64,000 nucleotides of DNA, taken from the NCBI GenBank assembly GCA_963730185.1, contig CAVSQW010000015.1:96001-160000 (forward strand), read 5' to 3'. The notes below the pieces were generated by a model that had not been told where the DNA came from, did not search any database, and saw only the letters and a program-made list of their open reading frames with translations. Both the position numbers and the translations under genes were made by a program. Positions 47,230 to 63,081 of this stretch are shown here, piece after piece. Every line of letters begins with the position of its first letter. Positions within the stretch are counted from its first letter, which is position 1. This DNA comes from an uncultured Gemmatimonadales bacterium. Lineage in GTDB: Bacteria; Gemmatimonadota; Gemmatimonadetes; Gemmatimonadales; GWC2-71-9.

Positions 47230-49428
47230 TCACTGCCCTCCGGCCGGCTGGGCGCCGGCTGGCGCGGTCCCGGCATGCGCCAGCTTGATGTCCTTGCCAA
47301 GGCGCTGGAGGTACGCGACCAGCGCGATGATCTCCTTGTTCTGGAGGTCGGCCGGGCCGCCCTGGGCCGCGATACTCTGGGCCAGGGTGGTGGCCTGGGT
47401 CCGCGCCATCTCGGGCGCCCGGTTCACGGCGTCGCCGTAGGGCACTCCCAGCATGGCCATCGCGTCGACCCGGGACTGGATCGAGGCGAAGTCGAGCTGG
47501 TTCCGGAGCAGCCAGGGATAGGCCGGCATGATCGACTGGGCCGTGATCGACCGGGGATCCTCCATGTGCCGAACGTGCCAGAGATCGGGATACTTGCCAC
47601 CCTCGCGCGCCAGGTCCGGCCCGATCCGCCGGGAGCCCCAGAGGAACGGGTGGTCGTAGACGAACTCGCCCGGCTTCGAGTATTCGCCGTACCGCTCGGT
47701 CTCCCAGCGGAAGGGCCGGATCATCTGCGAGTGGCAGTTGAAGCACCCTTCCCGGATGTAGATGTCGCGTCCGGCCAGCTCCAGAGGCGTATAGGGCTTG
47801 ACCGACGCGATGGTCGGGACGTTGGAGCGAATCAGGAAGGTGGGGACGATCTCGAACAGCGAGGCCACCACCACGGCGACCGTGACCAGCACGGTGAAGG
47901 TGAGCGGCAGCGCCTCCCACTTCCGGTGCCAGCCGGCCCGGGCGAAGCGGGCCCAGAGGCCGCCGGTCGCGGGCGTCGGCGTCCCGGTCAGCGCGGTGAG
48001 CGGCGCGGCCTGGATCACCGGCTCCTCGTAGGTGGCCGGTCGGGCCAGCCAGGTCTTGAGAATGTTGTAGCCGAAGAGGACCATCCCGAGGATGTAGAGC
48101 GTGCCGCCCGCGGCCCGGACCAGGTACATCGGCATCAGCTTGACGGTGGTCTCGACGAAGTCGGGGAAGACCAGCCTCCCGGTCTGGTCGAACGCCCGCC
48201 ACATGAGGCCCTGCGTCAGGCCGGCGCTGTAGATCGCGGCGGCGTAGAGGATCATGCCGAAGGTCGCCAGCCAGAAGTGGACCTCGGCCAGCTTCTGGCT
48301 GTGCAGCTTGGTCTGGAAGAGCCGCGGCAGGAGCCAGTAGATCATGCCGAAAGTCAGGAGGCCGTTCCACCCCAGGGCGCCGGTGTGGACGTGGGCGATG
48401 ATCCAGTCGGTGTAGTGGGCCAGGCCGTTCACGCTCTTGATGGAGAGCATCGGTCCTTCGAACGTCGCCATGCCGTAGGCGGTGACCGCCACCACGAAGA
48501 ACTTGAGGACCGGATCCTCGACCACCTTCCGCCAGGCCCCCCGAAGGGTCAGCAGGCCGTTGACCATGCCACCCCACGACGGGGCCCAGAGCATCACCGA
48601 GAAGAGCATGCCCACCGTGGAGGCCCACTCGGGGAGCGCGGTGTAGTGGAGATGGTGCGGGCCGGCCCAGATGTAGAGGAAGACCAAGGTCCAGAAGTGG
48701 AGGATCGAGAGCCGGTAGCTGAACACCGGCCGGTCGGCCGCCTTCGGCATGAAGTAGTACATCAGGCCGAGGAACGGCGTGGTCAGGAAGAAGGCTACGG
48801 CGTTGTGTCCATACCACCACTGCATGAAGGCGTCCTGGACGCCCGCGTAGATCGAGTAGCTCTTGAAGGGCCCGGCCGGGATCGAGAGGTTGTTGAAGAT
48901 GTGCAGGATCGCGACGGTGATGATGCTGGCGATGTAGAACCAGATCGCGACGTACAGATGCCGTTCCCGGCGCTTGGCGATGGTGCCGAAGAAGTTGACC
49001 GCGAAAATCACCCAGACGATCGCGATCAGGATGTCGATCGGCCACTCCAGCTCGGCGTATTCCTTGGCCTGGGTGAAGCCAAGGGGCAGGGTGATCGCCG
49101 CCAACACGATGATCAGCTGCCAGCCCCAGAAGTGGAGCTTGCTCAGCAGGTCGCTGAACATCCGCGCCTTGAGGAGCCGTTGGGTGGAGTAGTACGCGCC
49201 GCAGAAAAAGGCGTTCCCCGCGAACGCGAAGATCACCGCGTTCGTGTGGAGCGGCCGGAGCCGGCCGAAACTGATCCAGGGCAGCCCGCCGTTGATGGCG
49301 GGATAGGTCAGCTCGAGGGCGATCAGCAGCCCCACCAGCATCCCGACCAGGCCCCAGATGAACGTGGCGAAGAGGAACTTCCGGACGATTGCGTCGTCGT
49401 ACGTGAAGTTATCGAGTCGGGCGTTCAT
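47230..49428 (-). CDS. ccoN: Fused cbb3 oxidase subunit I/II (CcoN-CcoO)
   Basis: FGRLRPLHTN, QWWYGHNAV, WAGPHHLHY, IAHVH, followed in frame by EGCFNCHSQMIRP, WGSRRIGPDL, SIMPAY. Confidence 0.97.
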   Translation of the reverse strand: MNARLDNFTYDDAIVRKFLFATFIWGLVGMLVGLLIALELTYPAINGGLPWISFGRLRPLHTNAVIFAFAGNAFFCGAYYSTQRLLKARMFSDLLSKLHFWGWQLIIVLAAITLPLGFTQAKEYAELEWPIDILIAIVWVIFAVNFFGTIAKRRERHLYVAIWFYIASIITVAILHIFNNLSIPAGPFKSYSIYAGVQDAFMQWWYGHNAVAFFLTTPFLGLMYYFMPKAADRPVFSYRLSILHFWTLVFLYIWAGPHHLHYTALPEWASTVGMLFSVMLWAPSWGGMVNGLLTLRGAWRKVVEDPVLKFFVVAVTAYGMATFEGPMLSIKSVNGLAHYTDWIIAHVHTGALGWNGLLTFGMIYWLLPRLFQTKLHSQKLAEVHFWLATFGMILYAAAIYSAGLTQGLMWRAFDQTGRLVFPDFVETTVKLMPMYLVRAAGGTLYILGMVLFGYNILKTWLARPATYEEPVIQAAPLTALTGTPTPATGGLWARFARAGWHRKWEALPLTFTVLVTVAVVVASLFEIVPTFLIRSNVPTIASVKPYTPLELAGRDIYIREGCFNCHSQMIRPFRWETERYGEYSKPGEFVYDHPFLWGSRRIGPDLAREGGKYPDLWHVRHMEDPRSITAQSIMPAYPWLLRNQLDFASIQSRVDAMAMLGVPYGDAVNRAPEMARTQATTLAQSIAAQGGPADLQNKEIIALVAYLQRLGKDIKLAHAGTAPAGAQPAGGQ

Positions 49429-49481: not shown

Positions 49482-49526
49482 AAGATGGCCATCGGTCGAT
49501 AAAGCGATCATAAGGCCGGCGTGAAC
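49482..49526 (-). promoter_or_regulatory. Island promoter (3 hexamers, 11 nt, -10) upstream of ccoNO
   Basis: GTTCAC-N5-CCTTAT-N5-CTTTAT-N11-CATCTT. Confidence 0.55.
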
Positions 49527-51424
49527 GGATCTTCAGCGATCGCATCTCGTTCAGCGGCTTCCGACGCCCGGGCCGCTGCGGCCTGGTGCAGGGCCTGCTC
49601 GGCGGGGCCGGCCCGAACGACCCGGAGGGCATTGAGGATCACCGCCACGTCGATGGCCTCCTGGATGAGGGCCCCGATCGGCGGCGCCACGAAGCCAAAG
49701 GCGGCGAAGAGCATCCCGGCGGCGCTCAGTCCCAGTCCTACGCCGATCGACTGCCGGGCGATCTGCATGGTCCGCCGGGCGATGGCTACCGCCTCGGGCA
49801 CGCGGCCCAGGTCGTCGACGAGGAGTACGATGTCCGCCGCTTCGGCGCTGATCCCGCCACCCGAGCCGGCGAGCGCGAGGCCGACACCCGCGGCGCTCAG
49901 GGCGGGCGCGTCGTTGGCGCCGTCGCCCACCATGAGCACCCGTCGTCCCAGCTTGGTGAGCCGGGCCACCAGGGCCACCTTGTCCTGGGGGAGGAGGTCG
50001 CCCCGGGCCTCGGTGATGCCGAGGGCCTCGGCCGTCGCCGTCACGTTGGCGGTCCGATCGCCGGAGAGCAGGAGGACGCGCTTGACTCCGAGATCACCGA
50101 GGGCGCGGACCACCGCGGCCGCGTTGGACCGGAGCCGGTCCGCGTAGTTGATGATCCCGGCGGCCCGGCCGTCCACCGCGATGTAGCCGCGGAGGCCGAG
50201 GCTCGGCTCCTGCTCGGCGAAGCCAGCCGCCGCGGCCGGCTCCCACTCCCGAAGCAGGCTCAGTGCCCCGACCGTCACCTGGTGGCCGTCGACTGACCCG
50301 GCCACCCCCCGCCCCGCCGCTTCGACCACGTGCTCGGCCGGCGGCAGCGGGCCGCATCGGGCGAGCGCCGCCTCGACCACGGTCGTGGCCAGCAGGTGGC
50401 CGGATCCCTGCTCCACCGCGCCGGCCAGACGGTAGAGCTCGGTCTCCTCGAACGGCGGGAGGGCGTCGATCCGGGTCACGATCGGCCGGCCCAGGGTCAC
50501 GGTCCCGGTCTTGTCGAACACCGCGGTGTCGATTTGGGCCAGCTGCTCCAGCGCGCCGCCGTGCCGGACGATGATCTGGTGCTTGGCGGCCCGGTTGATT
50601 CCGCCCAGGAAGGCGACCGGCGCCGCCAGAATCAGGGGGCAGGGGGTGGCGATCACCAGGACGGCCAGCACCCGGGTCGGGTCGCCCGACGCGAGCCAGG
50701 TAACCAGGCAGACGACGATGGTGAGAGGCGTGAACCAGATCGCCGCCCGGTCGGCCAGCCGTTGGAGCGGGGCCTTGCTCTCCTGCGCGCTCCTGACCAG
50801 CTCCACGATCCGGTTGTAGAGGCTCATGGCGGCGACGGCGGTTACCTCGACCGTCAGCGGCCCGTCCAGGTTCACCACCCCGCTCGAGAGAGCGGTGCCC
50901 GCCTCGGCGGCGAGAGGGAGCGGCTCACCGGTGAGCCGCGATGTGTCCACGCCCGACCGCCCGGCGATCACCCGGCCGTCGCAGGGCACCATCTCACCCG
51001 GACGCACCAGAACCCGGTCGCCGACGACGACCTGGTCCACCGGTACGTCCACGATCCCGTCGAGCACCACCTGGTGGGCGATGACGGGGGCCTCGGCTTC
51101 GAGCTGCTCCACTGCGCGTGACGCCCGGCGGGCGGCGTAGTCCTCCAGGGCCTCGCCGCCGGTTTGCATCAGCACGATCACCATCCCCGCGAACGGCTGG
51201 ACCAGCACGACCGCCGCGACCACGGCCAGCGAGGCGACGATGTCGGCCGCGTAGCGCCCCCGCAGCATCCCGCGGATCGTCGCGACCACGATGGGAGTTC
51301 CCAACACGACCAGCCCCACCATCCAGACGATGGTGCGGGCGGAAGGGGCGGATACGACTCGCGGGGCCAGAAGCCCCGCGAGGATCACACCGCCGGCCGC
51401 GGCGGGACGGATGGCGTGACGCAC
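49508..51424 (-). CDS. Heavy-metal P1B-type ATPase, P1B-5-like
   Basis: TGEP, ATPCPLIL, DKTGT, GDGANDAPAL, QEAID; no N-terminal metal-binding domain. Confidence 0.88.
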   Translation of the reverse strand: MRHAIRPAAAGGVILAGLLAPRVVSAPSARTIVWMVGLVVLGTPIVVATIRGMLRGRYAADIVASLAVVAAVVLVQPFAGMVIVLMQTGGEALEDYAARRASRAVEQLEAEAPVIAHQVVLDGIVDVPVDQVVVGDRVLVRPGEMVPCDGRVIAGRSGVDTSRLTGEPLPLAAEAGTALSSGVVNLDGPLTVEVTAVAAMSLYNRIVELVRSAQESKAPLQRLADRAAIWFTPLTIVVCLVTWLASGDPTRVLAVLVIATPCPLILAAPVAFLGGINRAAKHQIIVRHGGALEQLAQIDTAVFDKTGTVTLGRPIVTRIDALPPFEETELYRLAGAVEQGSGHLLATTVVEAALARCGPLPPAEHVVEAAGRGVAGSVDGHQVTVGALSLLREWEPAAAAGFAEQEPSLGLRGYIAVDGRAAGIINYADRLRSNAAAVVRALGDLGVKRVLLLSGDRTANVTATAEALGITEARGDLLPQDKVALVARLTKLGRRVLMVGDGANDAPALSAAGVGLALAGSGGGISAEAADIVLLVDDLGRVPEAVAIARRTMQIARQSIGVGLGLSAAGMLFAAFGFVAPPIGALIQEAIDVAVILNALRVVRAGPAEQALHQAAAARASEAAERDAIAEDPFTPAL

Positions 51425-51434
51425 GGGGCCTCTC

Positions 51435-52133
51435 TTAGTGCCGACCGACCTTGACCGCCGCCTCCGCGTGTCGGAGGCAGAAGCCGACCCCGCGCACCGT
51501 TTCGACCCGGGGGTCGTTCACGTGCTTGGCGAGCTTGCGGCGGAGGTTACCGACGTGCACGTCGACGACATTGCTCTCGGGGTCGAAGTGCATGTCCCAG
51601 ACCTTCTCGAGGAGCGTCGTCCGCCGCACCACCTCTTCAGGATGGAGCATGAAGTACTCGAAGAGCTGGAACTCCTTCGCCGTCAGGTCCAGCCGCTGGC
51701 CGTTGGCCATGGCCTGGTGCCGCAGCCGGTCGAGCTCGAACGGACCGTAGCGAAGGACCTCCAGCCGGTCGGCGCCGCCGCGGCGGTGGAGCGCTCTGAG
51801 CCGGGCCAGGAGCTCCTCGAATCGGAACGGCTTGGTGAGATAGTCGTCGGCCCCGACGTCGAGCCCCCGTACGATGTCTTCCACCGAGTCCCGTGAGGTC
51901 AGCATCAGGATGGGCGTGTTCCGCCCTTCGCGGCGGAGCTCCGCGGCGACCTGAAACCCGCTCTTCTTGGGAAGGAGGACGTCGAGCAAAATGACGTCGT
52001 ACTCGTAGACGTGGGCCAGCATGGTGGCTTCCTCGCCGTCGGGGGCAACGTCGACGACGTACCCCTCTTCCTTGAGGCCCTGCTCGATGAAGCCCGCGAC
52101 TTTCCGGTCGTCTTCCACCACGAGGATCTTCAT
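51435..52133 (-). CDS. OmpR/PhoB family response regulator
   Basis: VVEDD, LLDVLLP, GADDYLTKPF, LTAKEF, NVVDVHVGNLRRKL, TVRGVG. Confidence 0.96.
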   Translation of the reverse strand: MKILVVEDDRKVAGFIEQGLKEEGYVVDVAPDGEEATMLAHVYEYDVILLDVLLPKKSGFQVAAELRREGRNTPILMLTSRDSVEDIVRGLDVGADDYLTKPFRFEELLARLRALHRRGGADRLEVLRYGPFELDRLRHQAMANGQRLDLTAKEFQLFEYFMLHPEEVVRRTTLLEKVWDMHFDPESNVVDVHVGNLRRKLAKHVNDPRVETVRGVGFCLRHAEAAVKVGRH

Positions 52134-52166
52134 GTCGTCTTCCTTCCCAAGGGTATCGTGAGGGAG

Positions 52167-52211
52167 AGTTTACTCGGTCCCCTCTAAACCCCGGGTCAAG
52201 GTTTTATGAAG
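52167..52211 (-). promoter_or_regulatory. Island promoter upstream of the response regulator (autoregulation)
   Basis: CTTCAT-N5-CTTGAC-N5-GTTTAG-N11-TAAACT. Confidence 0.7.
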
Positions 52212-52217
52212 AGTAGC

Positions 52218-53450
52218 TCATGGTCCCGCGGCCGGCAATCTCAGGGCGAACCGGCCGCCATGGCCGGGCTGGGCGACGGCGATCAGGTCGCCGCCCAGGA
52301 CGCGAGCCAACCGGCGGGACAGGGGGAGCCCCACGCCGTAGCCCACCCGGCCGGTCTCGGCCGCGTTCGCGGTGGTGTAGTAGATGTCGAAGATCCGCTC
52401 CACGTCGTCCTCGGCCACCCCGTCGCCCTGGTCGAGCACGGTGATCTCGACCCGACCGTCGACCGCCTCCGCGGTGAGCTCGATCTGGCTTCCGGCGGGT
52501 GTGTGGCGGATGGCATTGGTCAGGACGTTGACCAGGATCTGCTCCACCCGGTGAGCGTCGGTATGGCAGAGCAGATGGACGTCTCGAGGGGGCGTCCCGA
52601 AGGTGACCCGTTTTTCGTCCGCCGAGGGCGTAATTCGGATGATCGCTGTCTGGATCAGCTGGCAGCAGTCGACCACTTTGAGGATCGGCTTCAGGCGGTC
52701 CTCGTCGAGACGGTTCAGGTCGAGGAGGTCGTTCACCAGCGCCACCGCCTGCTCGGCCGCCTCGAGAATCTCGAATGCGCCCCGCGGCACCGTCTCGGGG
52801 TCCTTCCGGCGGACCAGCATCTCCGACCAGCCGTAGACCGCGGCCAGGGCGTTCCGGAGTTCGTGGTTGACCATCGCGAAGAACCGCTCGCGGGAGCGGT
52901 GGAGCTGCTGGACCTCCTCGAGGAGATGCGCGGTCCGCTCGTAGAGGCGGGCGTTTTCCACGGCGGAGGCGATGATCGCGGCGAGGAGCTGGGCCAGGTG
53001 CACGTCTTCGTCGCTGAACTCGGCGGCGTCGACCTTCTCGGTGAGGTAGAGGTCGCCCAGCACGCCCTGGCGCCCGACGATCGGAACGCCGAGGAACGAC
53101 TTCATGGGCGGGTGGTGCTTCGGGAAGCCGACCGACGCCGGGTGCCGCTGGATGTCGGGCAGCCGGACCATCTGGCCTTCCCGGATGACCAGGCCCAACA
53201 CACCGTGCCCGATGGGGAGGGTCCCGATCCGGGCGCGCTCGGCGTCGCCCAGGCCGGAAGTGGTGAAGCTGGCCAGCGTCTCGTTGTCGGGATTGAGCAG
53301 GCCGATGGCGCTGTACCGCGCGCTGAGCACTTCGCGGCCCAGGTCGGCCACCCGCTGGAGCACCCGATCAAGCCGAAGCTCGCCGACGAGCTCCGGAGTG
53401 ATGCGGACGAGCCGCTCGATGCGTTCGTGGGAAGCGCCGCCAGTCGGCAT
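52218..53450 (-). CDS. Soluble sensor histidine kinase with DosS/DevS-type GAF domain and HisKA/HATPase
   Basis: HPASVGFPKHHPPMKSFLGVP..GDLYLTEK GAF; NHELRNAL H-box; NVLTNAIRH, DQGDG, GYGVGL; no TM. Confidence 0.92.
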   Translation of the reverse strand: MPTGGASHERIERLVRITPELVGELRLDRVLQRVADLGREVLSARYSAIGLLNPDNETLASFTTSGLGDAERARIGTLPIGHGVLGLVIREGQMVRLPDIQRHPASVGFPKHHPPMKSFLGVPIVGRQGVLGDLYLTEKVDAAEFSDEDVHLAQLLAAIIASAVENARLYERTAHLLEEVQQLHRSRERFFAMVNHELRNALAAVYGWSEMLVRRKDPETVPRGAFEILEAAEQAVALVNDLLDLNRLDEDRLKPILKVVDCCQLIQTAIIRITPSADEKRVTFGTPPRDVHLLCHTDAHRVEQILVNVLTNAIRHTPAGSQIELTAEAVDGRVEITVLDQGDGVAEDDVERIFDIYYTTANAAETGRVGYGVGLPLSRRLARVLGGDLIAVAQPGHGGRFALRLPAAGP

Positions 53451-53512
53451 GGGAGAATAGTACGGGGTCGGCGGCCGATTCGCACCGGGGTCGGGAGCCT
53501 CTTGGCGCCGAT

Positions 53513-53557
53513 CTTAGTGAAGGCTTCACCCGCTCTTCATGGAGCCGCCGGTAGTGT
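53513..53557 (+). promoter_or_regulatory. Island promoter upstream of USP1
   Basis: CTTAGT-N5-CTTCAC-N5-CTTCAT-N11-TAGTGT. Confidence 0.7.
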
Positions 53558-53589
53558 TTCGCTACGAGGGAAGGAGTGCTGCAACGTCG

Positions 53590-54456
53590 GTGGACCTCAA
53601 ACACATGCTGGTGGCAACCGATGACTCGCCGGGCGGGCGGCACGCCGTCCGGACCGCGCGCGCCTTGGCGAGCGCGCTGCACGCGACCCTGGCGATCCTG
53701 ACCGTGGAGTCGGTCCGGCCGGAGGGGCCGCTGCCGGCCGGACGTCTGGTGTCGACCCGAGTGAAGGACGGGCCGCCGGTGGACGACTTGGGCAGGTTTT
53801 CGAGCTGGCTCGGGAGCGATGCCGCCACCGACGGGCTGCCCGAGCCGCCCGAGTTGGCGGTCGGGTTCGGGATCGCGGGGATCGAGATTGGGCGGTTCGC
53901 GACGCTCCGAGCGGCCGATCTGATCGTGCTCGGGCGCCGCCCTCGCGCCCCCGACCGCCGTCTCGTCTTGGGCGCGACGGCCGACGGGTTGGTTCGGCGC
54001 TCGGCTACGCCGATCCTCTTCGTTCCCCCCGAAGTCACTACGCTGCGCTCGGTGCTGCTCGCGTTGGATCCGACGGAGCGGAGCGCCCGGGTGGCGCGGG
54101 TCGGGCTCGACTTCGCGCGGACGGTGGGAGCCACGGTGGTGGAGGCCGTGACGGTCCGGCCGAGCGGGACCGGGGAGCCCAGCGCGCCGTCGGTCCTGCC
54201 GGGGCGCCGGCCGGTGCGGATCGATCAAGTGCTGCATCGGGCGGCGGCGGCGATGATCGAGCTCGGTCCGATCCCGCTCACCATCCGGCAGGGTGATCCA
54301 ATCGAAGAGGTGCTCGCGGAGGCGGCGTCCAGCGGGGCGGACGTCCTGGTGATCGGCTATCGGCGGGGTGGTCCGCCCAAATACGTGAGCCCGACGGAGA
54401 TCGCCCGGAACCTCCTGTACGCGGCGCCCTGTGCCGTGTTGACCGTCCCGCTCTAG
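53590..54456 (+). CDS. Tandem-domain universal stress protein
   Basis: LVATDDS, ADLIVLG..LGATADGLVRRSATPILFVP, ADVLVIG..APCAVLTVP; GTG 53590 chosen because ATG 53539 lies inside the predicted promoter. Confidence 0.88.
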   Translation: MDLKHMLVATDDSPGGRHAVRTARALASALHATLAILTVESVRPEGPLPAGRLVSTRVKDGPPVDDLGRFSSWLGSDAATDGLPEPPELAVGFGIAGIEIGRFATLRAADLIVLGRRPRAPDRRLVLGATADGLVRRSATPILFVPPEVTTLRSVLLALDPTERSARVARVGLDFARTVGATVVEAVTVRPSGTGEPSAPSVLPGRRPVRIDQVLHRAAAAMIELGPIPLTIRQGDPIEEVLAEAASSGADVLVIGYRRGGPPKYVSPTEIARNLLYAAPCAVLTVPL

Positions 54457-55361
54457 TCGCGGGCCGCGCGGATCGCCGCCCAGCGGCGCAGGAGAACTGC
54501 CCGCCGGCGGGCCAGGTGGCGGGCCACCAGACCGCGGTGCGGCTCGAGCAGTCCCGGCTCGCCGCTTCTTACCTTCCGTTCCACACTGGCCAGGTCATGG
54601 AGCCCCCCGAGCACGTCCTGGATCCCGGCGGAGCCGCGCCAGGCTGGCGTCGGGCTCGCGGTCGACGGGGCGGGTCAGGATCTCCACCCGGTAGCGGAGC
54701 CCCTTGATCGCCTTGCGAAGGTCGTGCAGGCATCCGTCGTCGTCGGCGGCGGTCGGCCGGCCGCCCCGGGTGGGGCGGGTCCAGGCCTCGTGCCGGGTTA
54801 CCCGGTCGCGCGCCGGGTCGAGCAGGAGGTCGGCCGCATCGCGGACCGGTCGATAGGCGAAGGGAAAGAAGCGGGGCGAGCGGACCCAGCGCCGGAGCGA
54901 TCGCTGGGTCCGCTGCAGGTCGGGATGGGCCAGCGTGTCGCGGACCCGTCGCCGGGCGGCCCGCCGCTGGGCCCTGAGCCGGCGGATCGCGTGCTGCAGG
55001 AGATCGCCCTGGACGCCCTTGGCGACCGGGACCAGGTCCTCGAGCGTCTCGAGCACCACGTCGAGGTCGCGGAGCCGGCCCAGCGATCGGCCCAGAGCCG
55101 GGCCAGCCGGGCCGTGTCGATCGGGGCGGGGAGGTCGAGGGCCTCGTGCCCGAGCGTCAAGGCGGCCCGGAGCCGCCGGAGCGCCACCCGGAGCTGGTGG
55201 AGGTCCTCGGGATCGGAGCCCAGGCGGACCAAGCGGGCATGGCGGCGGAAGCGGCGGGTCTGTTCCGCCACCGCCAGCCAGAGGGTCGCCCCCACGCTGC
55301 CGGGGGCCGTCGGGAGGGACGCTCGTTCCGGGAGCGGGAGGAGGGCGTCGATCGCGGTCAT
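54453..55361 (-). CDS. CHAD domain (polyphosphate-binding) protein; two frameshifts near 55088 and 54625
   Basis: DPEDLHQLRVALRRLRAAL / LGRLRDLDV..LHDLRKAIKGLRY / IQDVLGGLHD recovered across three frames. Confidence 0.8.
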
Positions 55362-55410
55362 GGCTGATGATACCGCCGGCTGGGCTGAGCGGAAGGCCGT
55401 CTGAACCGGA

Positions 55411-55455
55411 CTTCACGCCCCGCTCACCGCTCGCTCAGGCCGCTGGATCTACCCT
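55411..55455 (+). promoter_or_regulatory. Island promoter upstream of the DUF2892-acg-mgtC operon
   Basis: CTTCAC-N5-GCTCAC-N5-GCTCAG-N11-TACCCT. Confidence 0.62.
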
Positions 55456-55494
55456 ATCATGGCCGGGCTCGGGCTCGGGCCCGAAGGAGGTACC

Positions 55495-55704
55495 ATGACG
55501 CGCAATGTGGGAGGCCTGGATCGGGCGATTCGCCTGCTGCTCGGTGTGCTCCTGCTGGGGCTCTACGGTGCCCTGGATCCGCCCTGGAAGTTCGTGACCC
55601 TGCTGGGGTTGATTCCCCTTGGCACTGCCCTGACCGGAATGTGCCCCCTCTATTCGATGCTCGGGATCTCGACCCGTCGGTCGGGGCCGGGCGGGGCTCG
55701 ATGA
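55495..55704 (+). CDS. DUF2892/YgaP-like membrane protein
   Basis: MTRNVGGLDRAIR..TALTGMCPLYSMLGIST; AAGGAGG RBS. Confidence 0.92.
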   Translation: MTRNVGGLDRAIRLLLGVLLLGLYGALDPPWKFVTLLGLIPLGTALTGMCPLYSMLGISTRRSGPGGAR

Positions 55705-55719
55705 GCCACGGAGGCCCTC

Positions 55720-56748
55720 ATGGCCGACCTCTGGCTGGAACCGTTCGAAGAGGCCATCGCCGAGTTTCCGGTCACCGGCACGCCGAGCGAGAAGTTCTCG
55801 GCGGCGCTCCAGATCGCCTCGCGGGCTCCCTCGGTTCATAACACGCAACCCTGGTGGGCCCGAGTCCGGAGCGGCCGGCTCGAAGTCCATGCCGATGGAC
55901 GCCGCCAGCTCCTGGTGGCCGATCCCGACGGCCGGGAGATGCTGGCCAGCTGCGGTGCCCTGGTGGAGCACCTCTGGGTGGCCCTCCGGCGCTTCGGCCA
56001 CGACGCCCAGATCGAGATGCTGCCGGAAGGGCCGGGCAGCCTCCTGGTGGCCCGGATCGATCTCGGTGATCTGCATCGGGTCGATCCCAGCGATCGGCAT
56101 CTGTTCGAGGCCATCGGCGGGCGGGTCACCAACCGGCGGCCCTTCCAGCGGCGGGCGGTTCCCGAGCTGGCGCTGGAGCGGGCGTCGCGACGTGCCATTC
56201 AGCGGCGGGCCCGGCTCGGGGTGCTTCGCGACGCGGCGGAGCGATCGGTGCTGGCCGGGTTGGTAACCGAGGCGGACCGCCGGCAGATGGCCAGTCGCGA
56301 GTTCCGTCAGGAGTTGGCGAGCTGGCTCCGCCCGACCGGCAGTCGACGGCTTGACGGGATTCCCGCGCAAGCCGGCAAGGCCCCGGCCGCCATCCGACCG
56401 CTCGCCCCACTGTTGGTTCGCACCTTCGACCTGGGCGACGGGGTGGCCGCCTACGACCGGCGGCTGGCGACCGGCAGTCCGGTGCTCGCCGTGCTCTGGA
56501 CCCCCAGCGATTCCCGGGCCGCCTGGGTGGACGCCGGCCGCGCCCTGGCGCGGGTGCTGCTCTCGCTCACCGCCGACGGGATCTCGGTCTCGTTCCTCAA
56601 CCAACCGATCGAGGACCGGGAGCTCCGGCTGGAGTTGGCCCAGGCCATCGGCCCCCACGAGTTTCCCCAAATGGTGCTCCGGGCCGGCTACGGTCCAGAG
56701 CTCCCCTTGACTCCGAGGCGCCCGCTCAAGTCGATCCTCCGACCCTGA
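55720..56748 (+). CDS. Acg family FMN-binding nitroreductase-like protein
   Basis: RAPSVHNTQPW, DPDGREMLASCGA, RVTNRRPF, AWVDAGRALARVLL, NQPIE, PQMVLRAGY. Confidence 0.92.
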   Translation: MADLWLEPFEEAIAEFPVTGTPSEKFSAALQIASRAPSVHNTQPWWARVRSGRLEVHADGRRQLLVADPDGREMLASCGALVEHLWVALRRFGHDAQIEMLPEGPGSLLVARIDLGDLHRVDPSDRHLFEAIGGRVTNRRPFQRRAVPELALERASRRAIQRRARLGVLRDAAERSVLAGLVTEADRRQMASREFRQELASWLRPTGSRRLDGIPAQAGKAPAAIRPLAPLLVRTFDLGDGVAAYDRRLATGSPVLAVLWTPSDSRAAWVDAGRALARVLLSLTADGISVSFLNQPIEDRELRLELAQAIGPHEFPQMVLRAGYGPELPLTPRRPLKSILRP

Positions 56749-56755
56749 CCCGGCC

Positions 56756-58015
56756 GTGGACATCCTGACGTTGGTGCGGAACCTGGCCGTGGCCGGTCTG
56801 GTGGGGCTCGCGGTCGGAATCGAGCGGGAATGGTCCGGCCACGCCACCGGGCCCAACGCCCGGTTCGCCGGGATCCGGACTTTCCTGCTCCTCGGGCTGA
56901 CCGGTGGCGTCGCCGGGCTGCTCGCCGGGACGGAGGGGCGAGCGCTGGCGGTGGTGCTCCTTGCCATCGCGGGCGCGCTGATCGTCGCCGCCTACGTGCT
57001 CGCGGCCCGGCGGGTCCCCGAAGCGATCGACGGCACCACCGAGGCCGCCGCGATCTTGGTACTGGGCGTCGGGGTCCTGGCGGGGCTCGGGTCGATCCGG
57101 ATCGCGAGCGGGGTCGCGGCCGTGATGGTCCTGGCGCTGAGCGAGAAGGACGCGCTCCGGCGCTTCATCGAGCGGGTCGACGCGGCCGAGCTTCGAGGGG
57201 CGTTTCAGTTCGCGGTGCTGGCGTTGGTGGTCCTGCCGCTCCTGCCCGAGGGACCGTACGGGCCGGCCGGCGCGATCCGCCCGCGGATGCTCTGGATGGT
57301 GGTCCTCCTGATCTCCGGGGTGAACTACCTTGGGTATCTCGCCCGACGGCTGGTGGGTGAGGCCCGGGGTTACGTCATCGCCGGGGGTCTGGGCGGGATG
57401 ATCTCCTCGACGGCGGTGACCTTGGCCTTTGCCCGGGCCAGTCGGAGGGAGCCGGAGCACGCCCGAGCCTTGGGGCAGGGCACCATCGCTGCGTCGGTCG
57501 TCCTGGTGCCGCGGGTGCTGGCCGTGGCTCTGGCGCTCAACCCCGGGTTTGTCCCGAAGGCGGCGCTGGCCCTGGCTCCGATCCTCCTGGTCGGGGTGAT
57601 CTCCCTCGCCCTCGGCCATCGGTCGGCCGGTGGCGGCGGTGGGAATTCGGTCCCGGCGTCGCGCAATCCGCTCGAGCTCGGCCAAGCGATCCGGATGGCG
57701 ATCCTCTTCCAGGTGGTCCTGACCGGAGTCGAGTTGGCCCGGGCCCGGTTCGGCGATCCCGGGGTGCTGGCTGGGGCGGCCGTCGCCGGACTCACCGACG
57801 TGGACGCCCTGACCCTTACCATGAGCCGGGTGGCCCAGCGCGTCGACCTCGTCACCCTCGCTGCCCAGGCGCTGGCGATCGGCGTCGTCGCCAACGCGGT
57901 GCTCAAGTCGATCGCGGCGATGGTCCTCGGGCACCCGGACTTCCGGCGCCGAGCGGTGCCCGGCCTGCTGGGCATGGCGGTGGTGGGCGTGGCGACGGTA
58001 CTCTGGCTCGGGTGA
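56756..58015 (+). CDS. MgtC/SapB plus DUF4010 membrane protein
   Basis: GLAVGIEREW, AGIRTF, GTTEAAA, LGGMISSTAVT, AGLTDVDA. Confidence 0.92.
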   Translation: MDILTLVRNLAVAGLVGLAVGIEREWSGHATGPNARFAGIRTFLLLGLTGGVAGLLAGTEGRALAVVLLAIAGALIVAAYVLAARRVPEAIDGTTEAAAILVLGVGVLAGLGSIRIASGVAAVMVLALSEKDALRRFIERVDAAELRGAFQFAVLALVVLPLLPEGPYGPAGAIRPRMLWMVVLLISGVNYLGYLARRLVGEARGYVIAGGLGGMISSTAVTLAFARASRREPEHARALGQGTIAASVVLVPRVLAVALALNPGFVPKAALALAPILLVGVISLALGHRSAGGGGGNSVPASRNPLELGQAIRMAILFQVVLTGVELARARFGDPGVLAGAAVAGLTDVDALTLTMSRVAQRVDLVTLAAQALAIGVVANAVLKSIAAMVLGHPDFRRRAVPGLLGMAVVGVATVLWLG

Positions 58016-58036
58016 CGGCGGTGACCCGTGTGGCCG

Positions 58037-58081
58037 TTTCGGGAGACTTTCACGTCTCCTTCAGGCGCGAGCGGGCATCTT
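58037..58081 (+). promoter_or_regulatory. Island promoter upstream of USP2
   Basis: TTTCGG-N5-TTTCAC-N5-CTTCAG-N11-CATCTT. Confidence 0.65.
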
Positions 58082-58132
58082 CCGAGTGTGAAGGATTCCT
58101 TGGAGTAACGATCCGAGAAGGAGGGTCAAACC

Positions 58133-59056
58133 GTGTTGCGAACCATCGTAGTGCCCCTCGACGGGTCGCGTTTCGCCGAGACGGCGGTGGCGCCGGCGGC
58201 CGAGTTGGCCAGGAAGGCCGGGGCGCGCCTCCACCTCGTGATGGTCCACGAGCCCATCTTGGCCCTGGTCCCGGCGGCGGACGTGCCGGCGCCGGCGGCG
58301 CCCGACGACGTCGAGCTGCGCCAGCAGGAGCAGGCCTATCTCACCGAAACCGCCGAGCGGCTCGGCACCGTCGGCTCGGGCCCGGTCAAGCTGGAGCTGG
58401 TGGACGGCATGGCCGGCCCGGCCCTGACCGACTACGTCGCCAAGGTGCGTCCCGATCTGGTCATCATGTCGACCCATGGCCGGGGTCCGCTGAGTCGCTT
58501 CTGGCTGGGGAGCGTGGCCGATCATCTGATCCGTCACGCTTCGGTGCCGCTGCTGCTGTTGCGGCCCAAGGACGGCGAGAAGGCCCAGCCCGAGGTGCTC
58601 GAGCTCCGCTCGGCGCTGGTCCCGCTCGATCTCTCGGACGAGGCCGAGACGGTGGTGCCGGTGCTTCGTGACCTGATCCGGCTGACCGGCGGCGAGATCA
58701 CCCTGCTGCACGTCGTGGAGCCGATCCTGGGGATCTCGGGCGCGGTGCCGCCCTATCCGGTGGCTGTACCGGCCGATCAGCTCGAGTACTCGCGGGAGGA
58801 AGCCCAGAAGCGGCTCGAGGGCGTCGCGGTCCGGCTCCGGACCGACGGGCTCACCGTGTCGAGCCGGGTGGTGGTGGGTCTGGGGGTGGCCGGGACGGTG
58901 CTCGAGACCTTGGAACAGTCGCACCTCGACTTCGTGGCGATGTCGACCCACGGGGCGGGCGGCTTCAAGCGGCTCCTGGTCGGGAGCGTGGCGGACAAGG
59001 TGATTCGCGCGTCGTCGCACCCGGTGCTGGTCTACCGGCCGCCCGCCAAGGCCTGA
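58133..59056 (+). CDS. Tandem-domain universal stress protein
   Basis: IVVPLDGS, MSTHGRG..LGSVAD, MSTHGAGG..VGSVADKV. Confidence 0.95.
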   Translation: MLRTIVVPLDGSRFAETAVAPAAELARKAGARLHLVMVHEPILALVPAADVPAPAAPDDVELRQQEQAYLTETAERLGTVGSGPVKLELVDGMAGPALTDYVAKVRPDLVIMSTHGRGPLSRFWLGSVADHLIRHASVPLLLLRPKDGEKAQPEVLELRSALVPLDLSDEAETVVPVLRDLIRLTGGEITLLHVVEPILGISGAVPPYPVAVPADQLEYSREEAQKRLEGVAVRLRTDGLTVSSRVVVGLGVAGTVLETLEQSHLDFVAMSTHGAGGFKRLLVGSVADKVIRASSHPVLVYRPPAKA

Positions 59057-59059
59057 GCG

Positions 59060-59467
59060 TCAGCCGGCGAGCGCCGCCGCGACGGCTTCGATGCGGCGGC
59101 GCGCCTCGGCGGCGATCGGTTGAATCGCCGGATCGTCCGCGAGGCCGCCGAGTCCCATCATCGCGCCGGGGTTGCCGACCCGCACCAGGGTCCGGTCGGC
59201 TCCGGCGCTTTCCACGGTCACCGTACAGGGAAGCAAGAGCCCGACGTCGGCTCGGGCCGACAGCGCCCGGTGGGCCAACTCCGGGTTGCAGGCGCCGAGG
59301 ATGGCGTAGGGGCGGAAGTCCTGGCCGAGCTTCTCCTTGAACGTCTGCCGCACGTCGATCCGGGTCAGGATCCCGAACCCCCGGGCTTGGAGCGCATCGG
59401 TGACCCGGGTAAGGGCCTGGTCGTAAGGCTCGGCCAGCAGGGCTTCGAAGAAGAGGGGCTCGGCCAT
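59060..59467 (-). CDS. DUF302 domain protein
   Basis: GFGILTRIDV..KEKLG..YAILGACNP..VGLLLPC. Confidence 0.93.
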   Translation of the reverse strand: MAEPLFFEALLAEPYDQALTRVTDALQARGFGILTRIDVRQTFKEKLGQDFRPYAILGACNPELAHRALSARADVGLLLPCTVTVESAGADRTLVRVGNPGAMMGLGGLADDPAIQPIAAEARRRIEAVAAALAG

Positions 59468-59485
59468 GGCGAGGTCTCCGGGGGG

Positions 59486-60655
59486 CTAGCGTCCAGTGCG
59501 AAAGCGGAGCAGGGCGGCCAGGCCGTCGATCCGGCGGGCGAGTGCGGGGTCGTCGATGACCCGGACCTCGCTCCGCTGGTTGAGGGCCTCGTCGATCGCG
59601 GCGTCGATCAGGTTGGGGACGGGCTCGGGGTCGCCCTCCCCCCGGCAGTGACGAGGCGAGGCCACCAGCCGGCCGCTCGTCCCGCACCGGAAGCCGGCCG
59701 ACCCCTCTCCCTCGGGAACGACCAGCACCCGGACCTGGCCCTTGGCCAGGGCGCCGAGGGTCGCCCGAATCCCATTGCGGGCCCAGCCGGTGGGACCGCC
59801 TGCCTCCACCGCCTCGACCAGCGTCTCTTCGTCCGAGCGTTCCCAGGCGGCCTGGAGGAGCCAGGTGGCCTCGGCGACGTCGGCCGCCTCGGCGACGGTC
59901 GGGTTGAGCCGGCCGGTGCCCATCAAGCGTTCCCGGAGACCGTGGGGCAGGAAATCGAGCAGGGCCGCGGTGTGCTCCGGCGGTCCCATGATCGCGATCC
60001 CCGCCGGCCGCTCCGCTCGCGCCAACCGCGCCATCTCCTCGGCCGTCGTCGCGTAGTGCCGGTGCTTCTCCGACGCGATCCGGTTGTGGTACCGTCGCTC
60101 GCCCCATCCCGGGGCATCCCCCCGGTCCGACCGGAACCGCCCGCCCCGCCGGGTCGGCGAGGTCACCCCGGTCAGCTCCTCGGCGCCGTCGGCGGCGACC
60201 GCGAAGAAGCGGGCGTGCTGCCGGTCCAGGACCACCGTGAGGTAGCGGTCGAGCGTCTCCTGAGCGTCGAACAGCTCGAGCAGCGCGGGCCGCCGGTCGA
60301 CCGTGACCCGGTTCCGATGGACCCGCCCCAGCGGGATCACTTCGAACAGGTCGAGGCGCTCGCAGGCGAACAGGGCGACTCCGGGGAGCCCTGGGAGATG
60401 GCCCGGCTTGGCGAGCCAGTCGAGAATCCGGTCCAGGTCGCCCCGGACCTCCCGAAGCGCCTCCCGGTCGACATCGAGGGCCTCGAGTTGCTTGACCATT
60501 GCCCGGGCTCGCTGGCGGATGGCCGTCAGGTAGCGCTTGCGCTGCCGGTGCTCCACGTCGAGACGGACGTAGCATGACACGACGACCGGCTGGTCGGCGG
60601 TCATCCGATCGAGTTGCTCGAGGATCTGGTCGGTGCTGGCGACGCTGGTCCCCAT
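59486..60655 (-). CDS. Bacterial archaeo-eukaryotic release factor 1 (baeRF) homologue
   Basis: PVVVSCYV N-domain, GVALFAC, VVLDRQHARFF RNase H-like middle domain, GIRATLGALAKGQVRVLVV..GLAALLRF L7Ae-like C-domain; GGAGGA RBS favours ATG 60655. Confidence 0.85.
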   Translation of the reverse strand: MGTSVASTDQILEQLDRMTADQPVVVSCYVRLDVEHRQRKRYLTAIRQRARAMVKQLEALDVDREALREVRGDLDRILDWLAKPGHLPGLPGVALFACERLDLFEVIPLGRVHRNRVTVDRRPALLELFDAQETLDRYLTVVLDRQHARFFAVAADGAEELTGVTSPTRRGGRFRSDRGDAPGWGERRYHNRIASEKHRHYATTAEEMARLARAERPAGIAIMGPPEHTAALLDFLPHGLRERLMGTGRLNPTVAEAADVAEATWLLQAAWERSDEETLVEAVEAGGPTGWARNGIRATLGALAKGQVRVLVVPEGEGSAGFRCGTSGRLVASPRHCRGEGDPEPVPNLIDAAIDEALNQRSEVRVIDDPALARRIDGLAALLRFRTGR

Positions 60656-60686
60656 CGCGGTCCTCCTGGGCATCGAGTCCTGCGGG

Positions 60687-60731
60687 ATTTTAGGCGTGGA
60701 TGGCTGAAGTCACCGTGAAGGGCCGGTGAGC
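60687..60731 (-). promoter_or_regulatory. Island promoter upstream of baeRF-DUF302
   Basis: GCTCAC-N5-CTTCAC-N5-CTTCAG-N11-TAAAAT. Confidence 0.75.
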
Positions 60732-60759
60732 CCAGGTCCGATTCTCGACTCGCCGAACG

Positions 60760-60804
60760 CTACACGGTCGCTTCACCTCCGATTCATCGGCCTCCGGCCA
60801 GATT
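60760..60804 (+). promoter_or_regulatory. Island promoter upstream of the degenerate hydrolase
   Basis: CTACAC-N5-CTTCAC-N5-ATTCAT-N11-CAGATT. Confidence 0.62.
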
Positions 60805-60859
60805 GGCTCCCGATGCTTGGCGTCGCCAAGGGGCCGACAACCCGACGGAGGCGAACTCC

Positions 60860-61498
60860 TTGAACGTAACCCCGCTGTCCGAACCCAGTCTGGCGCGGAG
60901 CCGATCCACCGCCGGCTCGTGGTGCGTTCCCCGGCGTCCGGTCGGGGCGGTCCTGTTGTTGGCGGCCCGGTCGTCCGGGCTCGATGACGATGACGAGCCC
61001 GACCGGCTCCTGGCCGATGCCGTCTCGAACGCCGGTTTCGTCGTCCTGACGCTCGATCCCGGCGACTGGGCCGACGACGAACCGGGCGGCGTCGGCCATC
61101 GCGCCGCCGAGGTGGCCGGGTGGCTCGCCTGCCAACCGCTCGCCTGCCGGCGACCGATCGGGGTGATCGGGTGGGGGACCGAAGCGGCGGCCGCACTCCG
61201 GGCCGCCGCCGGCGCGTCGGGGTTCGTCGGGGCGGTGGCCTGTCAGGTGGCCGCCCAGGCCGAGGACACGGCGGAGGCGCTCGGCGCGGTCCGAGTCCCC
61301 ACGTTGTTGACGCTGGGCCGCGACGGGTGGGACGAGATGGGGCCCGCCCGTCTGGCGTTGGAGCGGATGGCCGCCCCGCACCGGATGGTGGTGATGCCCT
61401 CCGACGCCGGAGCCGCCTGCACGGCCGAGGCTCCGGTCGTGGGGCGGCTCCTGGCTCGGTGGTTCACCGAGCACTTGACCGCGGCCCGCCTCAGGTGA
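60860..61498 (+). CDS. Degenerate dienelactone-hydrolase-like alpha/beta fold protein
   Basis: AGFVVL, IGVIGWGTEAAAALRAAA, LGAVRVPTLL..G, WFTEHL; TTG 60860 with GGAGG RBS. Confidence 0.6.
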   Translation: MNVTPLSEPSLARSRSTAGSWCVPRRPVGAVLLLAARSSGLDDDDEPDRLLADAVSNAGFVVLTLDPGDWADDEPGGVGHRAAEVAGWLACQPLACRRPIGVIGWGTEAAAALRAAAGASGFVGAVACQVAAQAEDTAEALGAVRVPTLLTLGRDGWDEMGPARLALERMAAPHRMVVMPSDAGAACTAEAPVVGRLLARWFTEHLTAARLR

Positions 61499-61952
61499 GG
61501 CGGCCGGCCGCGTAGGCGCGGTTGATGTCGCTCCGGGAAATGATGCCCACCAAGTTTCCGTCAATCTCCACGAACAACCGATGCACGTCGGCGTAGTCCA
61601 TTTGCAGCGCGGCCTCGCGCACGTCGAGGGTCGGAGCCACCACCAGGGGCCGGGCGGTCATCACGTCGCGGACGACGGCCTCGGTCAGGAAACGGGCCCG
61701 CGCCTCCTGGTCGCCGGTCTCCGATTCGGCATCGAGGATGTCGCTGGCCGACACGACCCCGACGAGCTTGCCGTGCTGGTCGAGCACGGCGAGGCCGGTG
61801 ACGTGGCTGTCGGCGAGCCGGGCCACGGCCTCGTCGACCCGGGCCTCGTTCCGCACCGCGATCACGTCGCGGGTCATCAAATCGTTGACGGTGAGGTGTC
61901 CCGCCTTGGGCACCGGTCGGGGCTCGTGCTGCGGTTGCCTGATGGTTGCCAT
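61491..61952 (-). CDS. CBS domain pair protein
   Basis: VNDLMTRDVI..GKLVGVVSASDI and VRDVMT..LVGIISRSDI. Confidence 0.93.
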   Translation of the reverse strand: MATIRQPQHEPRPVPKAGHLTVNDLMTRDVIAVRNEARVDEAVARLADSHVTGLAVLDQHGKLVGVVSASDILDAESETGDQEARARFLTEAVVRDVMTARPLVVAPTLDVREAALQMDYADVHRLFVEIDGNLVGIISRSDINRAYAAGRLT

Positions 61953-61981
61953 GGGGTCGCCTCGGGTGGAAGGTCATTCCT

Positions 61982-62026
61982 ACACTACCGGGCGGGACCT
62001 AAAGCCACCTTGAAGGACCTCTGAAG
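61982..62026 (-). promoter_or_regulatory. Island promoter upstream of the CBS gene
   Basis: CTTCAG-N5-CTTCAA-N5-CTTTAG-N11-TAGTGT. Confidence 0.75.
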
Positions 62027-62037
62027 CGGAGGGCGCG

Positions 62038-62997
62038 ATGACCATTCCAGCGACGGGGCCGCGGCCGCCGGGCGAAAATAGGCGGGTCGGCCGGCTGCTC
62101 GGGGAGACCGCGGCTTTGCTGGAGGAACAGCAGGCCAGTCCTTTCCGCGTGGCCGCGTATCGGCGCGCGGCCGAGGTCGTGGCCGGACTGGCTCAGCCGG
62201 TGAGCGCGATTCTGAAGGCCCGGGGCCTCGACGGTCTCGAGCAGCTGCCGGCCATCGGCCCGAGCATCGCCCGCGGGATCCGCGAAATCGTGCTCGGCGG
62301 TCGGCTCCCGATGCTCGACCGACTCCGGGACGCGCGCGATCCCGTCGCCCTGCTGAGCCAGCTGCCGTTCGTCGGCCCGGTGCTCGCCGACCGGCTGCAC
62401 CACGATCTCGGAATCGATTCGCTCGAGGAGCTGGAGGTCGCGCTCCACGACGGGCGAGTCGCCGGCCTCGAGGGGTTCGGCCCCAAGCGGGTGGCCGTCC
62501 TCCGGGAGGCGGTCGCCGCGCGGCTCGGGCGGCGACCGCCCGCCGTCCCGGGTCCGCCGGGGGAGCAGCCCTCGGTGGCCGAGCTGCTCGACGTGGACCG
62601 GGAGTACCGGCTCGGCGCCGCCCACGGTACCCTGCCGCGGATCACCCCCCGCCGTTTCAACCCGAGCCGGAAGCGCTGGCTCCCGATCCTGCACACGGTC
62701 CATGGCGACCGCGACTACACCGCGCTCTTCTCGAACACCGCGCGGGCCCATCAGCTGCATCGGACCGACGACTGGGTGGTGATCTACTACGACGGGCGGG
62801 ATCGCGAGCACCAGGCGACCGTGGTGACCGAGCGGCGGGGGCCACTCCGGGGCCGGCGGGTGGTGCGGGGCCGGGACCGGGAGTGTCTCGCCCACTACGG
62901 CGCCACTCCGCCCCCTCCCACCGAGGTGGCCTGGTTCGAGGGGCTCGAGTCCGCGGTGACTCAGGAACCTACGGCGGTCGATGACTGCGAGCCGTGA
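62038..62997 (+). CDS. PolX N-terminal/helix-hairpin-helix protein lacking polymerase core
   Basis: SPFRVAAYRRAA, LPAIGPSIA, LPFVGP, LEGFGPKR HhH motifs; C-terminal PRRFNP..WLPILHT..FSNTARAH..DWVV domain. Confidence 0.85.
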   Translation: MTIPATGPRPPGENRRVGRLLGETAALLEEQQASPFRVAAYRRAAEVVAGLAQPVSAILKARGLDGLEQLPAIGPSIARGIREIVLGGRLPMLDRLRDARDPVALLSQLPFVGPVLADRLHHDLGIDSLEELEVALHDGRVAGLEGFGPKRVAVLREAVAARLGRRPPAVPGPPGEQPSVAELLDVDREYRLGAAHGTLPRITPRRFNPSRKRWLPILHTVHGDRDYTALFSNTARAHQLHRTDDWVVIYYDGRDREHQATVVTERRGPLRGRRVVRGRDRECLAHYGATPPPPTEVAWFEGLESAVTQEPTAVDDCEP

Positions 62998-63036
62998 AAC
63001 GGTCGTGAAGCCGGCGCGAGTGGAGGCGAAGCCGAT

Positions 63037-63081
63037 CTTATCCGGCCGTTAAGCGTGGGTTCATGCTGGGGTTGCCATATT
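63037..63081 (+). promoter_or_regulatory. Island promoter upstream of hsp20
   Basis: CTTATC-N5-GTTAAG-N5-GTTCAT-N11-CATATT; an extra inverted pair CTTCAC-N5-TTTCAC lies at 62994-63010. Confidence 0.55.

Follow-up and report, generated by a model that had tools for sequence, protein, structure and literature searches.

Genes and promoters of the locus

The window analyzed here is a stretch of 64,000 nucleotides (C15:96001-160000) from the 5.27-Mb, 82%-complete genome of an uncultured Gemmatimonadales bacterium, whose closest named relatives are Gemmatimonadales bins. Our subject is a repeated operator that precedes nine promoters of this window, together with the two-component system encoded among them: an OmpR/PhoB-family response regulator (51435-52133, minus strand) and a sensor kinase (52218-53450, minus strand). 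A preliminary description had proposed nine 45-bp sites, each made of three CTTCA-like hexamers at an 11-bp period, a spacer and a -10 box, and had assigned them to this regulator. On re-reading the sequence we found all nine, at the coordinates and strands given below. Their -10 hexamers proved exact as first read: CATCTT, TAAACT, TAGTGT, TACCCT, CATCTT, TAAAAT, CAGATT, TAGTGT and CATATT.

The regulator combines a receiver domain with a winged-helix Trans_reg_C domain (Pfam), the architecture that defines the OmpR/PhoB family, and its predicted phospho-acceptor is Asp51. Its promoter (52167-52221, minus strand) is putatively autoregulatory and carries three repeats and the -10 TAAACT, preceded by a partial inverted half-site (ATGAGC, 52216-52221) that shares bases with the stop codon of the kinase. 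The kinase has one DosT-like GAF domain, a long helix, HisKA (His196) and HATPase domains, and no apparent transmembrane segment. It has its own promoter, with the -10 TACTAT (53457-53462, minus strand) lying 6 nt before the ATG, which makes it leaderless, and no repeat operator faces it; this promoter is likely constitutive. A YANNNT box lies 6, 7 or 8 nt before the kinase ATG in 24, 8 and 10 of 67 orthologues, respectively.

Directly 3' of the regulator is a gene for a heavy-metal P1B ATPase (49508-51424, minus strand; start at 51322 or 51424; Pfam and NCBIfam), which is likely co-transcribed with the regulator. The ATPase has the motifs TPCP and Q-x4-G-x3-S-x3-M, which we take to be marks of the P1B-5 subgroup, and it often lies between the regulator and ccoNO in relatives. 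The fused cbb3 oxidase gene ccoNO (47230-49428, minus strand; NCBIfam NF011053) is the first gene of a cco operon reaching about 41181. Its promoter (49482-49536, minus strand) has an inverted half-site, CTGAAG (49531-49536), three repeats and the -10 CATCTT. All nine sites had been called intergenic, which is correct except here: the first 19 nt of the cco site lie inside the 3' end of the ATPase gene.

The remaining seven operators/promoters are as follows. One (53513-53557, plus strand) is divergent from the kinase and precedes USP1, a tandem universal stress protein (USP; 53590-54456, plus strand; Pfam). The next (55401-55455, plus strand) consists of a site and an inverted half-site, CTGAAC (55401-55406). 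It precedes genes for a DUF2892/YgaP-like protein (55495-55704), an Acg-family FMN oxidoreductase (55720-56748) and an MgtC/DUF4010 protein (56756-58015), all on the plus strand and identified by Pfam and NCBIfam; within this stretch (55495-58015), one gene scores above the cut-off of NF047509. The weakest of the nine sites (58037-58081, plus strand) precedes a second tandem universal stress protein, USP2 (58133-59056, plus strand; Pfam). Two sites stand back to back. One (60687-60731, minus strand) precedes genes for a baeRF family 10 protein and a DUF302 protein (59060-60655, minus strand), the former being a weak match to the Rv2629 family of ribosome hibernation factors. The other (60760-60804, plus strand) faces a gene previously labelled a hydrolase; it has no Pfam match, and the label survives in that the protein looks like a diverged, alpha/beta-hydrolase-like paralogue (38% over 134 aa) of a hydrolase further along the contig. 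The last two precede genes for a CBS-pair protein (site 61982-62026, gene 61491-61952, both minus strand; Pfam) and the small heat-shock protein Hsp20 (site 63037-63081, gene 63136-63579, both plus strand; Pfam).

The shared motif far exceeds chance expectation

We described the sites by a matrix with one profile common to the three hexamers and a separate profile for the -10 box. When each site was held out of the matrix in turn, only 14-56 of 10,549,018 genome positions matched its score, and these counts include other true sites. The weakest copies were USP2 (17.8 bits), DUF2892 (18.2) and then hsp20 (21.6). The cco and hsp20 copies had been thought the most degenerate; hsp20 is indeed third from the bottom, but the cco site, at 27.2 bits, is among the strongest of the nine.

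For a non-circular scan, we used the hexamers only, left out the training region and masked AT-rich stretches (local GC <0.60). Period 11 gave 28 matches, every one of them intergenic. Periods 7, 8, 10, 13, 14 and 16 gave 1-7 matches each, and periods 9, 12 and 15 gave 56-60 matches of which just 0-4 were intergenic, an excess of mostly genic matches that is due to codon phase. An ANNNT box stood at spacer 11 in 20 of 36 intergenic hexamer-only matches, compared with at most 4 at any other spacer between 5 and 19. The masked AT-rich stretches, at C7:about 716000-758000 and C12:about 422000-435000 in a genome of 70% GC, had produced many spurious matrix matches and are probably foreign DNA; they were also masked in the genome-wide count of sites and in the half-site analysis below.

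A fixed pattern of two hexamers and a -10 box was found on the sense strand of 12/38 upstream regions in the gene island around the regulator (4 on the antisense strand), in 8/4440 upstream regions outside it, and in none of 300 dinucleotide shuffles of the island regions, bearing out the enrichment that had been anticipated. Chance or a composition artefact was considered and rejected on the leave-one-out counts, the period and spacer scan and the shuffles. The nine sites are real, far beyond chance. The spacer of "exactly 11 nt" holds for these nine and fails as a general rule, as other sites of this genome and those of some relatives can have spacer 10. The -10 boxes conserve little besides A and T.

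Predicted targets extend across the genome

The sites had been taken to define a local regulon. Instead, at a threshold of at least 17 bits and spacer 11, there are 37 sites genome-wide, 17 in the island and 20 elsewhere, and 35 of the 37 point at a gene no more than 300 nt away. The island itself runs past the window to about C15:182100 (gene calls from a simple caller). Beyond the window it holds three more USPs, a second CBS protein, a PCMT/erythromycin-esterase fusion, a phosphoribosyltransferase, a hydrolase, glycogen synthase, an S30AE hibernation-type protein and PEP synthase.

Targets within the island (roughly 40 kb) include the cbb3 oxidase, five USPs, Acg, Hsp20, the two CBS proteins, baeRF, the PCMT/erythromycin-esterase fusion, the phosphoribosyltransferase and glycogen synthase. 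We annotated 24 downstream genes by Pfam; three scattered targets among them had no match. The scattered targets include genes for a NiFe hydrogenase small subunit, a molybdopterin oxidoreductase, a di-haem cytochrome c peroxidase and a cytochrome c. Others encode OmpW, alanine dehydrogenase, two radical-SAM proteins, an AAA_33 protein, a peroxiredoxin, OsmC, a beta-eliminating lyase, an acyl-CoA dehydrogenase and a peptidase.

The adjoining kinase has a DosT-like sensor domain

The best solved relative of the kinase GAF domain is a mycobacterial GAF with DosT numbering (2vzw, E 9.5e-40), followed by DevS GAFs. Gly50, His113 and Tyr135 of the kinase align to DosT Gly85, His147 and Tyr169 and are invariant in 18/18 aligned orthologues. 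In DosT the glycine is the open-channel residue, the histidine binds the heme on the proximal side and the tyrosine contacts O2 on the distal side (PMC4082495). The heme-ligand histidine is present in 48/49 Gemmatimonadota loci, and among this genome's gene calls the kinase is the sole protein with the heme-GAF motif.

The GAF-HisKA-HATPase layout, with a single GAF, was supported by Pfam and a structure model, and a whole-protein fold search returned HisKA-class kinases, with no further information on the GAF domain. Against the CusS family (TIGR01386), the kinase scored 79.9 bits with a cut-off of 292.55, a match confined to the kinase core, so it does not resemble a membrane-bound CusS-type partner. 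Among the matches listed in a collection scan, the 50 best loci were all from Gemmatimonadota. Domain class could be compared in 21 of 30 relatives from outside the phylum: the DosS-type HisKA_3 was found in 18/21, including the actinobacterial relatives, and HisKA in 3/21. A GAF tree grouped the Gemmatimonadota sequences (90/88); it is unrooted and names no donor.

Three loci related to this kinase should also be noted. A Chloroflexia locus (L140:7827-11533), one of the three with HisKA, has a USP beside an OmpR-like regulator, seemingly a different one, and a heme-type GAF-PAS-HisKA kinase, and the motif is absent. The pairing of a heme-GAF/HisKA kinase with an OmpR protein may therefore have arisen more than once, and this locus is possibly an independent version of the same rewiring. 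An NC10 locus (L134:10001-12722) has a DosT-like GAF-HisKA kinase followed by an NtrC-like regulator match and Fe-S assembly-like genes (labels by appearance). Lastly, genome G045 has an orphan DosT-like GAF-kinase homologue (L208:6586-7953), and the regulator was not found in that genome.

The motif is inherited together with the regulator

In NCBIfam the regulator is closest to the CusR/CzcR subfamily (TIGR01387), scoring 231.6 bits, below the cut-off of 279.2; its score for the PhoB family, 200.5 bits, is also below the cut-off (296.2). The genome encodes eight classical OmpR regulators, i.e. seven besides this one. Orthologues of the regulator group together with support (99/97; tree with 12 hand-picked orthologues), separate from the paralogues in this genome, and the recognition-helix segment is identical in 25 of 29 orthologues.

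A site lies between kinase and regulator in 23/28 related loci that hold the regulator, which argues for the autoregulation that had been predicted. It is also present at the regulator promoter, with spacer 11, in 24 of 44 further loci, and in several more with spacer 10. Gemmatimonadota loci contained 104 pattern matches in 766 kb, versus 18, 25 and 1 for shifted controls, while loci of other phyla contained 1 match in 503 kb. Across 60 relatives and this genome, pattern matches averaged 8.6 in genomes with the regulator and 1.9 in those without.

The same contrast was seen in 125 genomes of the family that are at least 90% complete. Sites were found in 100/103 regulator-positive genomes (mean 6.9) and in 3/22 regulator-negative genomes (mean 0.23), and the direction was the same in all eight genera that hold both kinds. 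Three regulator-negative genomes were checked and keep 2-8 other OmpR regulators. Upstream of ccoN, 10/18 loci of regulator-positive genomes scored at least 19 and 12/18 at least 13; none of four loci from regulator-negative genomes scored above zero. The comparative evidence backs both the classification of the operator as an OmpR/PhoB-type 11-bp repeat just upstream of a -10 and its assignment to this regulator. Given the co-occurrence across the family and its genera, and the absence of the site at ccoN in 4/4 regulator-less genomes, the regulator encoded at 51435-52133 is very probably the protein that binds these sites.

Two further observations concern these genomes. G003, with 16 sites, first appeared to be a counter-example; its contig starts at USP1, exactly where the kinase should begin, and we attribute the missing regulator to this assembly break. 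Upstream of ccoN in the regulator-less genomes G055, G039 and G037 (L183-L185), there are GATTCCCC-like words, which are perhaps the site of a different low-oxygen regulator.

Operator geometry suggests two promoter classes

In orthologues of the regulator, ANNNT lies 6 nt (28/74) or 7 nt (30/74) before the start codon. This is the leaderless spacing expected of a true -10, so the -10 box is likely real. With this spacing the repeats would fall at about -51, -40 and -29 and span the -35 region, the geometry of PhoB-type activation. Direct repeats of about 11 bp beside a -10 are what is expected of an OmpR/PhoB operator, and co-occurrence provides the link to this particular regulator.

We also identified an inverted fourth half-site, NTGAAG, 4 nt upstream of the first repeat. 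It is present in 28/29 of the relatives' regulator promoters, in 30/115 of their other sites (at most 6 at any other offset) and in 6/37 sites of this genome. In the regulator promoter the TGA/TAA of the half-site doubles as the stop codon of the kinase gene, so that conservation of the half-site there is partly due to this overlap. The A and G that follow are kept in 28/29 and 25/29 regulator promoters, respectively, and the half-site recurs at ccoN promoters. Sites that have it tend to show a weak middle repeat. This patchy distribution and the weak middle repeat suggest two candidate promoter classes, one with an inverted pair plus tandem repeats and one with tandem repeats only.

Comparison with known regulatory systems

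DosR is a NarL/LuxR-type regulator, whereas the present one is an OmpR winged-helix protein with 11-bp TTCA repeats in place of palindromic boxes. The kinase departs from DosS and DosT in having one GAF domain rather than two, with no second GAF, and HisKA rather than HisKA_3. It resembles the mycobacterial DosS/DosT-DosR (DevSR) system in its heme-type GAF, with proximal His, distal Tyr and the DosT-type Gly; in GAF-A of DosS/DosT the ligands are His149/147 (proximal) and Tyr171/169 (distal) (PMC4082495). The genes around the regulator are another likeness, since DosR and Streptomyces OsdK-OsdR are likewise associated with USPs, a nitroreductase/Acg, a small heat-shock protein and a pyruvate-phosphate-dikinase-type gene (PMC5069765). 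The targets predicted from the sites make up a DosR-type regulon of USPs, an Acg nitroreductase, a small heat-shock protein and dormancy genes. Autoregulation is a further putative common feature, and the sensor promoter lacks an operator here, just as dosT is not hypoxia-induced (PMC4082495). In contrast, OsdR is listed with a GC-rich 16-bp palindrome (PMC5069765), and the regulon described here also covers the cbb3 oxidase and a hydrogenase.

The pho-box consists of 11-bp direct repeats that cover the -35 region at a distance of about 10-11 nt from the -10. PhoB/OmpR activators share the receiver and Trans_reg_C domains and the direct 11-bp repeats with our system, which differs from them in its half-site, its odd array of three repeats with an optional inverted fourth, and its cytoplasmic heme-type sensor. 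The regulators CusR, CzcR and CopR are the closest in NCBIfam, and a P1B ATPase gene lies downstream here; differences are the score below cut-off, the separate clade, the GAF-kinase partner and a large regulon as opposed to a single site. The site of Corynebacterium glutamicum CopR, TGAAGATTTnnTGAAGATTT, has the same period and a CTTCA core on the other strand (PMC3140484).

Proteobacterial FNR/FixK regulons place cbb3 oxidase, OmpW, cytochrome c peroxidase, USPs and hydrogenase under low-oxygen control. These targets recur among those predicted here, while the regulator and its site are unrelated to FNR/FixK. The TTGAT-N4-ATCAA box was found in 0/22 ccoN upstream regions. Of the two Crp-family proteins encoded in the genome, one has no cysteine and the other a single one, which excludes both as an Fe-S FNR; no cysteine-rich Crp/Fnr protein was found in this 82%-complete genome, where such a gene could lie in the unassembled part. 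The combination, a DosR-like program with another kinase class, regulator family and operator, appears to be a new variant, and our search of the open-access literature yielded no description of it.

Proposed mechanism and alternatives

We think it probable that the repeats are the operator of this regulator, and that the regulator, with its DosT-like heme-GAF kinase, activates a genome-wide hypoxia/dormancy regulon at low oxygen. The preliminary description is supported in its core and was incomplete, lacking the DosT-like sensor kinase, the genome-wide extent and the inverted half-site. In the mechanism we propose, the kinase would be made constitutively from its leaderless, repeat-free promoter. 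By analogy with DosT, O2-bound heme would hold it off and deoxy heme (or heme with NO or CO) would turn it on, with phosphate passing from His196 of the kinase to Asp51 of the regulator. The phosphorylated regulator would then occupy TTCA half-sites on one helical face at about -51, -40 and -29, and at some promoters also the inverted half-site at about -61. So placed, it would cover the -35 region of weak -10-only promoters and recruit sigma-70 polymerase, as PhoB does. The internal promoter between kinase and regulator would provide positive feedback.

Expression data from the same order bear on the targets. In Gemmatimonas phototrophica, a cco operon with the same gene order is up about 3-6-fold at 10% O2, and cbb3 genes, hemN and a USP are up in the same comparison (PMC11406998, Table S2). 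The cco operon is therefore oxygen-regulated within the order.

Several observations weigh against our interpretation. In the portion of the published G. phototrophica gene table that we consulted, no such two-component pair lies beside the cco operon, and the one 'GAF sensor kinase' entry checked there has no response regulator after it. With no sign of this regulator in that portion, these data support the targets and not the regulator. Related genomes do not count as independent cases, and kinship inflates the contrasts between regulator-positive and -negative genomes. Three regulator-positive genomes have no pattern match, and 6/18 ccoN loci of positive genomes have no site within 400 nt. 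Conversely, no regulator orthologue was found in G177 (1 contig, 96% complete), which has three well-formed sites (C1:594664, 1871780 and 2083333), or in G052 (87% complete), which has five. One scattered target is a heavy-metal-resistance (CpxP/Spy-like) protein, and a paralogous OmpR regulator (C7:324974-325663) has TTCA repeats much like these, with spacer 10, at its promoter (C7:325693-325736, minus strand); paralogues may therefore account for some of the scattered sites. Completeness of only 82% is a limit of the genome itself. Finally, two loci, L127 and L130, are arranged differently: regulator and GAF kinase are transcribed divergently, and the gene after the regulator encodes another kinase, of the membrane type; this order is possibly ancestral, or a two-input arrangement.

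The alternative that survives best, though we consider it unlikely, keeps the same regulator and sites and replaces oxygen as the main signal with NO, CO or redox state, or with copper or another metal sensed via a CusS-like membrane kinase. The regulator's heavy-metal subfamily, the P1B ATPase directly after it, the CopR repeat and the membrane-type kinases just mentioned all favor a metal, and the heme of DosS/DosT also binds CO and NO (PMC4082495). However, the adjoining kinase has the GAF-HisKA-HATPase layout with its conserved heme-ligand histidine, as well as the DosT-type glycine that has been linked to stable O2 binding (PMC4082495). In addition, the targets are low-oxygen and dormancy genes, not metal efflux genes. 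Oxygen is likely the main signal.

It is less probable still that the repeats are bound by another factor, an OmpR paralogue or an unlinked protein, and that joint loss of the island accounts for the correlation. In keeping with this idea, the genome encodes eight OmpR regulators, of which one has a comparable site in its promoter, and G177 and G052 have sites with no orthologue found. It is countered by the 19/22 regulator-negative genomes that have no site at all, though those checked keep OmpR paralogues, and by orthologous ccoN genes that have no site in the absence of the regulator even where the ATPase-ccoN order is kept. The counter-example of G003 is only apparent. Finally, we regard as very improbable that the regulator represses, bound in air and released in hypoxia, or that the repeats are elements of an alternative sigma promoter: a protein on the -35 region could also block polymerase and TTCA resembles TTGA, but the -10 boxes keep little but A and T, none of the repeats is 16-18 nt away from the -10, a rigid spacer of 10-11 nt fits activator contact, and a triple 11-bp period with an inverted half-site is no sigma signature.

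A broader picture is more tentative, and we hold it as a possibility rather than an expectation. Here a large Gemmatimonadales family would use the system as its master switch for low oxygen. A DosT-type heme sensor would have been joined to a HisKA kinase and to an OmpR protein derived from a metal regulator, which took over both DosR-type dormancy genes and FNR-type respiratory genes. The hybrid operator, an inverted pair next to tandem repeats, may accommodate two dimers in different arrangements, with the cco and autoregulatory promoters responding at another threshold than the USP-type promoters.

If our interpretation is true, the mycobacterial and streptomycete dormancy program is modular: heme sensor and targets are conserved while kinase class, regulator family and operator are replaced. 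For a widespread lineage seen mainly as metagenome bins, it would provide a first candidate global regulator along with its precise operator and a list of targets. The low-oxygen physiology of this lineage would become readable from sequence, and two small proteins would suffice for tests. The mixed inverted and tandem operator, with its odd number of direct repeats, would also be a tractable case for how OmpR-family dimers are arranged on DNA.

Other features of the island

Three further features lie among the genes described above. A CHAD-domain gene (54595-55361, minus strand) is split over two frames and apparently frameshifted, and its N-terminal part matches Pfam CHAD. An ArsR regulator gene and, after it, genes for TolC/RND efflux, a YgaP-like protein and a thioredoxin (window 63712-64000 and C15:160008-166488) interrupt the island. 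A helix-hairpin-helix protein (HHH_8, HHH_5; 62038-62997, plus strand) is encoded divergently from the CBS gene with no site facing it, and it is also present in the island of G003.

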